In this document: positions 15,780 through 19,506 of the stretch, in pieces
Layout: every line of letters begins with the position of its first letter
Position numbering within the stretch: the first letter of the stretch is position 1
Source: a virus
Lineage: Duplodnaviria > Caudoviricetes
IMG/VR virus record: IMGVR_UViG_3300034053_000043
Coordinates: 1-56,633 of that record
DNA: 56,633 nt
Reading direction: 5' to 3' (one strand)
Notes under the pieces: generated by a model
Databases searched by the model: none
Seen by the model: only the letters and a program-made list of their open reading frames with translations
What the model was told of the DNA's origin: nothing
Program-made: the position numbers and the translations under genes

Positions 15780-15934
15780 GAAACGAACGAACCCCGCGCA
15801 CTCTGGCAGACACGATGTACAGCACCGGGTACAGCAGCGCACGGCTTGAGTCGCGCAGTTGGGCCGGATGGTGGCTTGCCGTGGCAATCGGGATCGCGCT
15901 GGCGCTGATGCTGGCGTATGGAGGACGGCTGTGA
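15776..15934 (+). CDS. small membrane protein (below the ORF track cutoff)
   Basis: Hand translation, 52 aa with a C-terminal TM segment; ATGA/GTGA coupling. Confidence 0.5.
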   Translation: MRNERTPRTLADTMYSTGYSSARLESRSWAGWWLAVAIGIALALMLAYGGRL

Positions 15935-16560
15935 GTGTTCGTGCCGTCATTTCTTCTGAACTCGGCATGAGCGAAGAGGCGTGGAAGCCGTGGAGAGACG
16001 GCACATATGAGGTGTCAACTCTTGGCAATGTGCGTCGGGCAAAGCCTGGCATATCAACCTTTGTCGGCCGCCCAGTACAACCGATTGCGAGTTCCACTGG
16101 CTATTCACAGGTAACGCTATTGAGCGACGGAAAGCGGCACCGAATCTACGTTCATCAAGCGATTGCCGAGGCGTTTTTGGGGCCTCGCCCAGATTGGCAT
16201 GTTGTCAATCACAAAGACGCAAACAAGCAAAACAACGCGCCGTCCAACTTGGAATACGTGACACACCGCGGGAACTCAATTCATGCGGCTGAGAACGTGC
16301 AGCGGAGGCGAGGCCCGACCATGACAAAGGCGCCGAAGAAGGGCCCTCAGCGAGGAGATGACCACTGGACGAAGCGAATGCCGGATCGCATTGCTAGGGG
16401 TAGCAGAATGCCTCATTCAAAGCTGACGGCAGAGATTGTGATGGCCGCCCGCAGCCGCGCTGCATCTGGCGAAAAGCAATGCGTTTTGGCGTGCGAGTAC
16501 GGGGTTTCTGTGGCGCAGATGAGTCGAATTATTAGGGGGACACGATGGACGGCAATGTGA
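15931..16560 (+). CDS. NUMOD4-HNH homing endonuclease
   Basis: WKP...YEVSTLGNVR; VNHKDANKQNN..SNLEYVT..N..H. Confidence 0.9.
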   Translation: MSVRAVISSELGMSEEAWKPWRDGTYEVSTLGNVRRAKPGISTFVGRPVQPIASSTGYSQVTLLSDGKRHRIYVHQAIAEAFLGPRPDWHVVNHKDANKQNNAPSNLEYVTHRGNSIHAAENVQRRRGPTMTKAPKKGPQRGDDHWTKRMPDRIARGSRMPHSKLTAEIVMAARSRAASGEKQCVLACEYGVSVAQMSRIIRGTRWTAM

Positions 16561-17423
16561 TTGACCAAGTTGTCACGGGCAACTACTCCGCATACCACGG
16601 GGATTGCGTTGAGGTTCTTAGGGGTTTGCCGAATGCTTGCATTGGGTACTCAATTTTTAGCCCGCCCTTTTCCTCGCTCTACACCTATAGCTCGTCTGCG
16701 CGCGACATGGGAAACGTGCGCAACGATGCGGAGTTCTTCGAGCATTTCGACTTCCTCATCGCCGAGCTGCGCCGGGTGATGAAGCCTGGCCGCAACATCA
16801 GCTTTCACTGCATGGACATGCCCAGCAGCAAAGAGCGCGACGGCGTGATCGGGCTGAAGGACTTCCCTGGCGACTTGCTGCGCGCATTCCAGCGGCACGG
16901 GTTCATCTACCACGCCAAGGCCACGATCTGGAAAGATCCGGTCACGGCGATGCAGCGCACCAAGGCGCTGGGCCTGCTGCACAAGAGCGTGCGCGAGAAC
17001 AGCGCCATGTGCCGCATGGGCATCCCTGACTACCTCATCACAGTCCGCGCGCCGGGCGAGTGCGAGCGGGTCACACACACGCCGGACGAGTATCCGGTGG
17101 ATCTGTGGCAGAAAGTGGCAAGCCCCGTGTGGATGGACATCAATCCGTCCGACACGCTGCAATACATGAGCGCCCGCGAGCACGACGACGAGCGCCACAT
17201 TTGCCCGCTCCAGCTCGAAGTTATCCGGCGTGGCGTGATGCTGTGGACAAACCCTGGTGACATCGTTTTGAGCCCGTTCATGGGCATCGGCAGTGAGGGC
17301 TATGTGTCGCTGGAAATGGGCAGGCGCTTTGTGGGCGTCGAACTCAAGACCAGCTATTTTCAGCAGGCCGCGCGCAACCTGGCGGCGGCCACCGCCAAAA
17401 CCATGGACCTGTTTGCAGCATGA
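16545..17423 (+). CDS. DNA N4-C/N6-A methyltransferase (beta class)
   Basis: SPPF catalytic motif, HICPLQL, VLSPFMGIGS. Confidence 0.9.
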   Translation: MDGNVIDQVVTGNYSAYHGDCVEVLRGLPNACIGYSIFSPPFSSLYTYSSSARDMGNVRNDAEFFEHFDFLIAELRRVMKPGRNISFHCMDMPSSKERDGVIGLKDFPGDLLRAFQRHGFIYHAKATIWKDPVTAMQRTKALGLLHKSVRENSAMCRMGIPDYLITVRAPGECERVTHTPDEYPVDLWQKVASPVWMDINPSDTLQYMSAREHDDERHICPLQLEVIRRGVMLWTNPGDIVLSPFMGIGSEGYVSLEMGRRFVGVELKTSYFQQAARNLAAATAKTMDLFAA

Positions 17424-19339
17424 ACTACGCAGACTTTGTGCGCCGCAAGCTGTCTACTGTGCCGGCCACTGGCATAACGGCAGACGTGCGCTTGCCTGCC
17501 TCCATGTTCCCGCATCAACTTGCGCTGACAAAGTGGGCGATCAAGCGGGGCCGGGCCGCGATCTTTGCAGATACCGGGCTTGGCAAGAGCCGCATGCAGC
17601 TGGCATGGGCTGACGCCGTGCAGCGGCACACCGGCAAGCCAGTGCTGATCCTGGCGCCGCTGGCCGTGGCGCAGCAGACAGTGCAAGAGGCGCGATCGAT
17701 CGGCATCGAAGCAGCGCAGGCCAGAAGTCATGAACAAGCGACGGATGCCGGCATCGTGGTTACGAACTACGAACGTCTGCACCGCTTCGATGCTGGCTGC
17801 TTTGGAGGCGTTGTGCTGGATGAGTCGAGCTGCATCAAGCACCACGACACCAAGACCTTGCGCACGCTGCTGGACGCCTTCAAAGATACACAGTTCAAGC
17901 TGTGCGCAACTGCGACACCGGCTCCGAACGACTGGACGGAGTTGGGCACACATGCCGAGTTCCTGGGCGTGTGCACGCGGCAGGAAATGCTGGCCGAATA
18001 CTTCTGCCATGACGGCGGCGACACGAGCGTATGGCGCCTGAAGGGCCACGCGCGGCACTTGTTCTGGGCTTGGGTCAGCACCTGGGGCGCCATGATCCGC
18101 AAGCCGTCAGACCTGGGATTTGACGACAGCGCATATGAGCTTCCAGCGCTGCACATGCACGAGCATCAGGTCGACTATGAGCGCCCGCTAGACGGCATGT
18201 TGTTCGCGGCTGAAGCGCAGAGCCTGAGCGAGCGCCGTGACGCGCGCCGGTCTTCACTGGCCGAGAGAGTTGCATCGTGTGTAGCGGTGGTAAACGCAGA
18301 GCGAGGTGTTGATGGCCTGGAAGAAAGAGTATGCGGGAGCGCGCAAAGCGAAGGCCGCAGCAGACCCGGAATACAGGGCAAGGAGAAATGCTCAATCGAC
18401 AGCGGACAAAGCGGCCAGAGCGGAATACATGAGGAACTACGCGAAGGCGAACCCGGAAAAGAGAAAAACAACGCCAGAGCAGAAAGCGCAAAGAAATGCG
18501 AAGCGCCGGGAGAAGTACCGCGCCGACTCAGAATTTCGGGACAAACACAAGGCCACGGTGAAGGAGTGGCAGGCGTCGAATCCGAAGGCCAGGAAGGCGC
18601 AGCGATTGAAGCAGTACGGGATCGAAACATCGGACTTCTTAGACATGCTGGCGACACAGAACGGCCGATGCGCGATCTGCGGGCACGAGGACACGACGAA
18701 CCTCAACTTCTTTCCGCTGGTGGATCACTGCCACAAGACGGGGCGTGTGCGCGGGCTTCTTTGCATGAACTGCAACCAGGGGCTTGGCAAGTTCAAGGAC
18801 GACGTGGGTCGACTATTTGCGGCGATTGCTTACCTGAACAAGCATGGCTGATTTGGGTTGAACTCAACGACGAGCAGGACGCGTTAGAGCGAGCATTCGG
18901 GGATCGCGCTTTTTCAGTGCGCGGCCCGATGACGCCGGACGCGAAAGAAGCCGCCATTCTTGGATGGGTGGCCGGCGAGCGCCCAATCATGATTAGCAAG
19001 CCTTCGATCATGGGATGGGGCATCAATGCACAGCATGCCGCACGCATGGCGTTCGTCGGGGTGACGGACAGCTACGAAGCCTTCTATCAAGCTGTCCGCA
19101 GATCCTGGCGTTTCGGCCAAACACGCGACGTGCATGTGCATGTGTTTGCCAGCAAGGCAGAGGGCGCTGTCGTGTCAAACCTGCGCCGCAAGGAACGCGA
19201 TGCACAGGCCATGGCCGAAAGCCTGAGCGCTGAAACGCGCGATGCCGTGATGGCCGAAGTCACTGGCCTGAAGCGCGAGACAAATGCCTACGGCGCAAGC
19301 AAGCGCGTAACAGTCCCCTCATTTTTGGAGGCAGCATGA
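17420..19339 (+). CDS. SNF2-like SF2 helicase with about 180 aa of in-frame insertion
   Basis: DTGLGKS, DESS, TATPAPND, GWGINAQ, QAVRRSWRFGQ; the insert is the alternate frame of the EndoVII gene. Confidence 0.85.
   Translation: MNYADFVRRKLSTVPATGITADVRLPASMFPHQLALTKWAIKRGRAAIFADTGLGKSRMQLAWADAVQRHTGKPVLILAPLAVAQQTVQEARSIGIEAAQARSHEQATDAGIVVTNYERLHRFDAGCFGGVVLDESSCIKHHDTKTLRTLLDAFKDTQFKLCATATPAPNDWTELGTHAEFLGVCTRQEMLAEYFCHDGGDTSVWRLKGHARHLFWAWVSTWGAMIRKPSDLGFDDSAYELPALHMHEHQVDYERPLDGMLFAAEAQSLSERRDARRSSLAERVASCVAVVNAERGVDGLEERVCGSAQSEGRSRPGIQGKEKCSIDSGQSGQSGIHEELREGEPGKEKNNARAESAKKCEAPGEVPRRLRISGQTQGHGEGVAGVESEGQEGAAIEAVRDRNIGLLRHAGDTERPMRDLRARGHDEPQLLSAGGSLPQDGACARASLHELQPGAWQVQGRRGSTICGDCLPEQAWLIWVELNDEQDALERAFGDRAFSVRGPMTPDAKEAAILGWVAGERPIMISKPSIMGWGINAQHAARMAFVGVTDSYEAFYQAVRRSWRFGQTRDVHVHVFASKAEGAVVSNLRRKERDAQAMAESLSAETRDAVMAEVTGLKRETNAYGASKRVTVPSFLEAA
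18312..18851 (+). CDS. recombination endonuclease VII-family homing endonuclease nested in the helicase
   Basis: QNGRCAIC...VDHCHKTGRVRGLLCMNCNQGLGKFKDD; GAGGTG RBS. Confidence 0.92.
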   Translation: MAWKKEYAGARKAKAAADPEYRARRNAQSTADKAARAEYMRNYAKANPEKRKTTPEQKAQRNAKRREKYRADSEFRDKHKATVKEWQASNPKARKAQRLKQYGIETSDFLDMLATQNGRCAICGHEDTTNLNFFPLVDHCHKTGRVRGLLCMNCNQGLGKFKDDVGRLFAAIAYLNKHG

Positions 19340-19506
19340 CCATTGTCTGTGACAAGCAATTCACGCCGCAGGCCGCCGAGGCCGCGACAGATGTCGGAGC
19401 CGACGACTACGACAACGCAGCACCTGAAGGCGCCTTTATCGCGGTGATGACGGTTGTCTTGACTGCCTTGATCGCCATCGCAGCAATCGCGGCCATTGCC
19501 GCCTGA
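19336..19506 (+). CDS. small membrane protein
   Basis: Hand translation; GGAGG RBS, ATGA overlap, C-terminal TM segment. Confidence 0.55.
   Translation: MTIVCDKQFTPQAAEAATDVGADDYDNAAPEGAFIAVMTVVLTALIAIAAIAAIAA

Follow-up and report, generated by a model that had tools for sequence, protein, structure and literature searches.

The window analysed here is the complete virus record IMGVR_UViG_3300034053_000043 (Duplodnaviria; Caudoviricetes) with a length of 56,633 bases. It contains an Endonuclease VII-family gene that is nested, in a shifted reading frame, within an SNF2-like helicase gene whose own frame stays open across the entire insertion. With a probability of roughly 0.78, this arrangement represents a homing endonuclease gene that uses neither an intron nor an intein and that is maintained because ribosomes translate the helicase across the insertion, which is tolerated as a disordered linker. 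Stop codons of the helicase frame are avoided within the endonuclease gene, no features of introns or inteins were detected, the arrangement recurs at 24 distinct loci and a mosaic tract of helicase sequence follows the insertion. The features of the locus, all located on the plus strand, are the following.

17420..19339 (+): helicase open reading frame (ORF), 639 codons plus stop, SNF2/Rad54-like superfamily 2, no stop through the insert
17420..18301 (+): N-terminal helicase portion upstream of the insert (residues 1-294) with the first RecA-like lobe and its helical extension, ending in ...VVNAE
18302..18841 (+): insert, 180 helicase-frame codons (R295-Q474) between VVNAE and AWLIWVELNDEQ, zero stops
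18303..18306 (+): GAGG, Shine-Dalgarno-like, 5 nt upstream of the endonuclease ATG, putative ribosome-binding site
18312..18851 (+): Endonuclease VII-family gene, 179 codons and a TGA, frame +1 with respect to the helicase; alternative start: GTG at 18306
18842..19336 (+): C-terminal helicase portion downstream of the insert (residues 475-639) with the second RecA-like lobe (Helicase_C)
18845..19009 (+): putative co-conversion tract, helicase W476-I530, 55 residues directly after the insert, holding an N-x-E-Q signature (Q486)

Pfam searches matched SNF2-rel_dom, DEAD and ResIII to residues 31-183 of the helicase and Helicase_C to residues 487-566. The 639-aa ORF was also matched by the DNA helicase family PHROG 62, and the SNF2/Rad54 helicase 1z63 was the nearest solved relative of the helicase family profile (PDB profile match, E 3.7e-13). 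The original prediction, a reading of the sequence made before any database search, had described about 180 stop-free codons of non-helicase sequence and, in a shifted frame of the same DNA, a complete Endonuclease VII with its own ribosome-binding site. Both parts of this description were confirmed. The extra codons correspond to R295-Q474, which form a gap in an alignment with 41 insert-free viral helicases and gp52 of EBPR podovirus 1, and these insert-free relatives reach up to 72% identity to the window helicase over the whole protein. The ends of the insert were set from protein alignments; a DNA alignment of the phages Malisha, Squiddly and Holliday was too fragmented to yield base-level ends. 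The nested ORF matched Endonuclease_7 (PF02945) with an E value of 4e-22 and 78.4 bits, compared to a cut-off of 23.6, over residues 100-179 of its 181-aa reading. It was further matched by PHROG endonuclease VII families (E down to 1e-30), and its solved relatives include the restriction enzyme Hpy99I (3fc3, E 2.7e-6) and T4 endonuclease VII (1e7d, E 2.3e-4). The ATG at 18312 aligns with the start of six homologues, and the GAGG preceding it may serve in ribosome binding. The motif CxxC...DHCH...CxxCN (C120, C123, D138, H139, C140, H141, C151, C154, N155) is invariant in all seven aligned nested homologues, and we take these Cys, His, Asp and Asn residues to constitute a Cys4 zinc site and a His-Me finger. 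The endonuclease gene ends in a TGA that overlaps the L477 and I478 codons of the helicase. The idea that the endonuclease is reached by programmed frameshifting was rejected in view of its conserved start codon and of a frame relation that varies by lineage.

A homologue search in INPHARED, IMG/VR and bacterial genomes identified 27 further loci with the same arrangement, which brought the number of nested loci to 28 in total and to 24 distinct ones after the near-identical L002, L008, L147 and L157 had been dropped. Stops that commonly interrupt the helicase frame of homologous insertions, or a decaying helicase, had been named beforehand as observations that would contradict the proposed arrangement. 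The two helicase halves were found in one frame in 28 of 28 loci and no locus carried a helicase-frame stop within the insert (0/28), while the endonuclease ORF was intact in all loci except L010. Strict patterns for helicase motifs II and III were recovered in all 24 distinct loci, for motif VI in 23 and for motif I in 21, and judged by this retention the helicase is not decaying. The frame relation between the two genes is +1 in 12 distinct loci, including the window, and +2 in the other 12, including Malisha and the rhizobial loci. The length of the insert varies from about 134 to 210 residues, and identities among the endonucleases reach down to about 40%.

Two of these loci belong to the phages Malisha and Squiddly, which were isolated on Gordonia terrae. 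Both phages carry an endonuclease homologue (42% identical) at the corresponding position of the helicase, and in their GenBank records the helicase is a single coding sequence (CDS) termed 'DNA helicase' while the endonuclease is left without annotation. The Malisha helicase consists of 619 aa. When it was used as a query against INPHARED, three records covered at least 80% of it; Malisha and Squiddly are among the matches listed and the third record may carry the insert as well. Nested loci were also located on large contigs of Rhizobium and Mesorhizobium genomes, which are presumably prophages, and on small contigs of metagenome-assembled genomes (MAGs) labelled Parcubacteria and Saccharibacteria. 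Yersinia T7-like phages were rejected as a further instance of the arrangement, as the endonuclease match under their 'DNA polymerase' is part of an annotated joined CDS. A different and possibly decayed arrangement was observed at L155:2806-3663, where approximately 70 N-terminal helicase residues, up to Walker A, run in frame into an Endonuclease VII core that is followed by a second Endonuclease VII copy.

Selection for an open helicase frame is apparent from the codons of the endonuclease gene. In the +1 frame relation of the window, a stop codon arises wherever a T-ending endonuclease codon precedes a codon starting with AA, AG or GA. The window endonuclease contains 17 T-ending codons among its 179 codons and 60 codons that start with one of these dinucleotides, and the forbidden combination was observed zero times where 5.7 occurrences are expected. 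A rough hand count in the original prediction had arrived at about 17 such codons, none of them followed by GA, AA or AG, and proved to be exact; the selection against stops that it suggested was subsequently supported by permutation. Synonymous permutation within the ORF produced a mean of 5.0 helicase-frame stops, and zero stops were obtained in 2 of 3000 permutations (a fraction of 0.0007) and in 0 of 1500 in a repeat. If codons were sampled from the helicase's own usage, the mean rose to 7.7 stops and none of 3000 samples was free of stops. The third frame contains 7 stops. As a control, 22 other coding-like ORFs of the window were read in the same relative frame and contained 261 stops compared to 271.5 expected, which indicates that the genome does not generally avoid such stops.

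The same signature was detected throughout the +1 group. Between 3.3 and 9.3 stops are expected in these loci and zero stops were obtained in 0 to 0.021 of 1500 permutations, which applies to 12 of 12 distinct loci. For eight +1 loci combined, a T-ending codon preceded a stop-completing codon in 0 of 470 cases, compared to 185 of 923 cases before other codons. Locus L010, with a G+C content of 44%, also belongs to this group and its helicase frame is open where 9 to 15 stops are expected. The remark in the original prediction that the helicase frame is naturally stop-poor at high G+C did not hold for the +1 relation of the window, but it was found to be correct for the +2 relation of the Gordonia and Rhizobium relatives. 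These data provide direct statistical evidence that the synonymous codon choice of the endonuclease gene is shaped, more than chance would allow, by selection for an open helicase frame.

An open frame throughout the insert would be of no consequence if the insert were spliced from the mRNA, either as an undescribed or highly reduced intron or by RNA processing of the host, with the endonuclease as the passenger of that intron. Endonuclease VII-family genes do occur in group I introns, as exemplified by the joined CDS of the DNA polymerase of Yersinia phage Berlin. However, a search of positions 17300-19500 on both strands against the described families of Rfam 15 returned no match to a group I or group II intron or to any other family at E<=1. 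As had been proposed from the sequence, the endonuclease ORF fills the insert and spans all but its first 10 nt, and with the ATG 10 nt into the insert and the TGA beyond its end a ribozyme core could not be accommodated outside the ORF. Moreover, no selection would keep the frame open in an insert that is spliced out, but stop avoidance was detected in all 12 distinct +1 loci, including L010 with its G+C content of 44%. Removal of the insert at the RNA level is therefore considered very unlikely.

Selection for an open frame would equally be expected if the insert were translated and then removed from the protein, be it by an unrecognised form of protein splicing or by protease clipping, to yield a helicase of normal length or in two pieces. 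The avoidance of stops indicates only that ribosomes need to reach the second lobe and not that the linker stays in place. A stretch of 176 residues with pLDDT values (predicted local distance difference test) below 50 would be exposed to proteases, and two-piece enzymes that result from the insertion of an endonuclease gene are known, such as the NrdA protein of Aeromonas phage Aeh1, whose gene is split by mobE. Evidence against protein splicing was obtained at several levels. No Hint/intein domain and no other family was matched by Pfam at E<=10 in four of four helicase-frame insert peptides (window and three relatives). The intein ends that the original prediction had reported as missing were not recovered by comparison either, as no intein nucleophile and no His-Asn followed by Cys/Ser/Thr is conserved at the junctions, where the inserts start with R, W, N, F and others and end with Q, E, K, S and others. 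The two frame relations yield unrelated insert peptides, which argues against any sequence-specific role such as protein splicing and excludes a shared catalytic fold in the host frame. Overall, removal after translation, by protein splicing or by proteolysis, appears unlikely. A separate C-terminal helicase piece made from an in-frame internal start was also considered and rejected, as the sole nearby Met in the host frame is not conserved among the loci.

The properties of the read-through peptide are those of a bland linker. AlphaFold, supplied with an alignment of 32 sequences, folded residues 30-295 and 476-615 with confidence, while residues 297-472 obtained pLDDT values below 50 and showed almost no secondary structure. 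In this model, the last helix of the first lobe and the first strand of the second lobe flank the insert exactly, and insertions between the lobes are frequent in SNF2-family enzymes. The helicase-frame insert peptide of the window is rich in G, E, A, R and S, belongs to no known family and has a hydrophobic fraction of 0.19, compared to 0.34 in the flanking helicase parts. This peptide is predicted to be disordered. Among the loci, the inserts are G/E/A/R-rich in one frame relation and S/T/A/P-rich in the other, and both types have approximately half of the hydrophobic content of their flanks. The hydrophilic composition and the age of the association, which is apparent from 24 distinct loci with endonuclease identities down to about 40%, would also be compatible with a peptide that was co-opted for a function of its own in the helicase, for example in regulation, partner binding or spacing. 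This possibility is hardly probable in view of unrelated peptides at the same site, the variable insert length, the lack of a Pfam match and of predicted structure, and close relatives that are entirely devoid of the insert. Splicing-free homing by dual coding, as put forward in the original prediction, is supported by the Rfam, Pfam, junction and AlphaFold tests.

Comparison of insert-bearing and insert-free helicases provided an indication of mobility. The window helicase shares 75% identity with the insert-free helicase of locus L019 before the insert, only 37% in the 55-residue tract directly downstream of the insert and 77% thereafter, while the corresponding values for the insert-bearing L005 are 69, 73 and 71%. 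The same pattern was detected for Malisha, whose closest insert-free relative among the matches listed is the helicase of Gordonia phage Holliday (83.5% identical). These two proteins are 88% identical before the insert, 41% in the tract and 92% over the last 79 residues, whereas the Malisha tract is closer to that of the window (56%). The position following N-x-E within the tract is occupied by Q in 18 and by H in one of 19 matched loci of the main insertion site (site 1), but by G, S or A in the insert-free viral helicases, where Q was found in 0 of 43 (one of them without the motif). The tract thus appears to travel with the insert, as would be seen for co-conversion during homing. Similarities of endonucleases and helicases are only partly congruent (r 0.55, 276 pairs); Malisha and L151, for example, share 77% identity in the endonuclease and 67% in the helicase. 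In a helicase tree from which L002, L042 and L057 were left out, the insert-bearing rows require at least two changes, and the window, L005, L006 and L009 are placed in an unresolved group alongside insert-free rows. The insert thus has a patchy occurrence at one homologous site in otherwise related helicase genes and is found, for example, in Malisha and Squiddly but not in Holliday.

While site 1 is common to 21 distinct loci, a second site is used at L065:398-2326, L150:1859-3787 and L152:1952-3760. There, a related endonuclease is located approximately 50 codons further downstream, just before VLISKPS, in the +2 frame relation and with an open helicase frame. This position is the far end of the mosaic tract. 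The loci were assigned to the two sites from motif positions and by reading of the sequences, as a local-pair MAFFT alignment had merged both sites. A full-length homologue of the endonuclease (47% identical) was also found as a free-standing gene at L142:1571-3546, directly downstream of an uninterrupted 456-aa helicase that belongs to the same family. Its ATG is preceded by a TTTAACTGGCAG-like leader, as in most nested copies, and this arrangement probably reflects the ancestral free-standing state of the element.

The following sequence of events would account for these observations. A homing endonuclease gene of the free-standing type (Endonuclease VII, His-Me finger) would have entered the inter-lobe linker of a phage SNF2-like helicase gene. 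With an insert length that is a multiple of three and an endonuclease that lies one base out of the helicase frame, ribosomes on the helicase mRNA would pass through the insert and add about 180 hydrophilic, disordered residues between the lobes, and both lobes would still fold and work around the added linker. Stops in the helicase frame would cost the protein its second lobe and would consequently be purged at synonymous sites of the endonuclease gene. The endonuclease itself would be produced by internal initiation at the ATG at 18312, which follows GAGG in the window and a conserved leader in the relatives. It would then cut insert-free helicase alleles of co-infecting phages, and repair would copy the element together with approximately 165 bp of downstream helicase sequence, a tract in which a recoded, immune version of the recognition or cleavage site is probably located. 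The original prediction had left open whether the host protein tolerates or bypasses the insert. Tolerance is favored here, as selection would have no reason to keep the frame open unless ribosomes translate the insert. As the two frames give rise to unrelated peptides, the sequence of the linker cannot matter and only its openness and blandness would be of importance.

We lean slightly towards a broader interpretation, which is to be taken as one joint proposal. Besides introns and inteins, Endonuclease VII homing genes may generally have a third way of entering essential genes. Their K/E/R-rich coding sequence would provide hydrophilic and stop-poor alternative frames, so that an in-frame landing in a linker is tolerated at once and the remaining stops are purged later. 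The endonuclease gene and approximately 165 bp of recoded, cleavage-immune helicase sequence would move as a cassette between phages of hosts that range from Actinomycetota to Alphaproteobacteria, and this cassette, which would have started from a free-standing copy such as that of L142, would change its frame and its site within the helicase gene.

Several observations weigh against translation through a tolerated linker as the explanation. In the +2 group, zero stops were obtained in 0.002 to 0.87 of permutations for the 12 distinct loci; the +2 host frame is naturally stop-poor and most of these loci therefore contribute recurrence but little statistical weight. The nested loci are of shared ancestry and, hence, are not fully independent replicates. 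In locus L154, the conserved Trp codon of PWLIWC directly downstream of the insert is changed to TGA (L154:3407). No other helicase-frame stop is present in the 28 loci, and the L154 helicase may be dead or the stop may be an assembly error. A promoter scan of positions 17300-19500 did not identify a sigma-70-like promoter, and the conserved leader of the relatives is absent from the window, where GAGG is found instead. Finally, the coverage of Rfam is restricted to described families.

Some of these points would also fit a helicase that is inactivated and dispensable, with the open frame as a by-product of high G+C content and of a K/E/R-rich endonuclease. In about half of the shuffles of the +2 type, chance alone leaves the host frame open, and L154 carries a TGA in its helicase exon. 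A baseline of 76 Endonuclease VII genes outside this helicase, all of which were retained, contained 10 genes without a stop in the +1-type frame and 16 without a stop in the +2-type frame. Five bacterial baseline loci with long open alternative frames were examined with Pfam as candidates for further nested cases and none was a host; two frames belonged to downstream genes (a histidine kinase and a terminase) that overrun the endonuclease and three had no Pfam match. Nevertheless, an inactivated helicase is extremely improbable, given that stop-free permutations do not exceed 0.021 in any of the 12 distinct +1 loci, that T is found before a stop-completing codon in 0 of 470 cases, that the halves share one frame in 28 of 28 loci with their motifs retained and that L010 is open at 44% G+C.

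According to the common view, a homing endonuclease gene can spare its host gene only by means of an intron, an intein or a location between genes. A fourth way, in which the host gene is read through and the insert is carried as a harmless linker, was proposed only in 2025, in a report whose main text develops the idea from one methylase insertion without a test for selection (PMC11855218). That report describes an out-of-frame nuclease insertion of the same kind in the methylase of phage ShiLan and names Pacc40 gp60 as a second case (PMC11855218). The likeness to the helicase element is extensive. A phage DNA-metabolism gene whose own frame is free of stops contains an insert that is occupied by a complete nuclease ORF in another frame, neither an intron nor an intein was detected, the element has a disjunct distribution, a loop or disorder is predicted for the host-frame peptide, and read-through and homing are proposed by the authors as well (PMC11855218). 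Several differences are equally evident. The ShiLan nuclease is an HNH enzyme with zinc fingers (PMC11855218); as Endonuclease_7 is the sole Pfam family of the window endonuclease, the two share at most a superfamily. The host gene is a methylase in ShiLan and an SNF2-like helicase here, which in these genomes is the neighbor of a methylase. In contrast to the ShiLan insertion, two frame relations and two sites were found for the helicase element, whose range reaches far beyond mycobacteriophages (Gordonia phages, Rhizobium/Mesorhizobium and candidate-phyla MAG contigs). The main text of the ShiLan account notes the open frame without a codon-level test of stop avoidance (PMC11855218), and this test was made in the present analysis. 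The helicase case extends the kind described in 2025 to a further nuclease family and a further host gene, and it supports selection directly by statistical tests. The terms endonuclease VII, Gordonia, Malisha and Squiddly are absent from the main text of PMC11855218, supplements aside. No description of the helicase/Endonuclease VII element was found in the literature searched, and the supplements of PMC11855218 and of 10.1101/2025.01.02.630785 may list cases.

The latter report covers non-canonical inteins, which resemble the helicase insert in that an Endonuclease VII-family nuclease occupies a shifted frame within an in-frame insert of a phage gene (10.1101/2025.01.02.630785). Those inserts retain an intein splicing domain that removes them, whereas no such domain is present here and the ORF fills the insert. 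Its non-canonical cases occupy four host proteins (DNA polymerase, minor capsid, terminase and thymidylate synthase), with the helicase not among them, and Gibb and Edgell 2007 is cited there for nested endonuclease genes (10.1101/2025.01.02.630785). In the T7-like Yersinia phage Berlin, an Endonuclease VII-family gene is likewise found inside an essential replication gene, the DNA polymerase. It is carried there by a group I intron with an annotated two-piece CDS, while no intron is detectable in the helicase and the host frame is kept open by selection. Free-standing homing endonucleases that split genes are exemplified by mobE in nrdA of Aeromonas phage Aeh1 and by the mobA cassette associated with the bypass in T4 gene 60. 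They share with the helicase element an intron-less endonuclease gene within a host gene whose function is rescued by an unusual route. However, these systems either divide the product of the host gene into two polypeptides or rely on a ribosomal hop of 50 nt, while one uninterrupted ORF extends through 540 nt in the helicase. The bypass cassette is the subject of a bioRxiv preprint (10.1101/2022.08.31.505936).

To the 2025 proposal the helicase family adds many loci, including those of two isolated, culturable phages (Malisha and Squiddly). It also provides a codon-level signature in which the frame of the host gene shapes the synonymous sites of a selfish gene, and a co-conversion tract that marks where the endonuclease probably acts. 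For genome annotation, hidden nested endonuclease genes of this type are probably under-counted.

Additional observations were made on the sequences that surround the endonuclease start and stop. A leader resembling TGnTAAAC(T)GGCAG, which is similar to an extended -10 element, is located 10-45 nt upstream of the ATG in L005, L006, L007, L009, L010, L001 and L062. In Malisha, the leader consists of TAAACT followed by 6 nt and the ATG, as in a leaderless transcript. The endonuclease ORFs at L007:3001-3558 and L010:3001-3579 have lost the usual stop and extend 6 to 13 codons further into the conserved WxxWC region of the helicase. L010 also contains a single TAA (L010:3160) at codon 54 of an otherwise conserved endonuclease gene, and the helicase frame over this TAA is open.

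Upstream of the helicase in the window, an N6/N4 DNA methylase gene (16545-17423) abuts the helicase gene. A free-standing HNH_3 endonuclease ORF (15859-16560; Pfam E 8e-14) is located upstream of this methylase gene and overlaps its start, so that the module contains a second, ordinary endonuclease gene.

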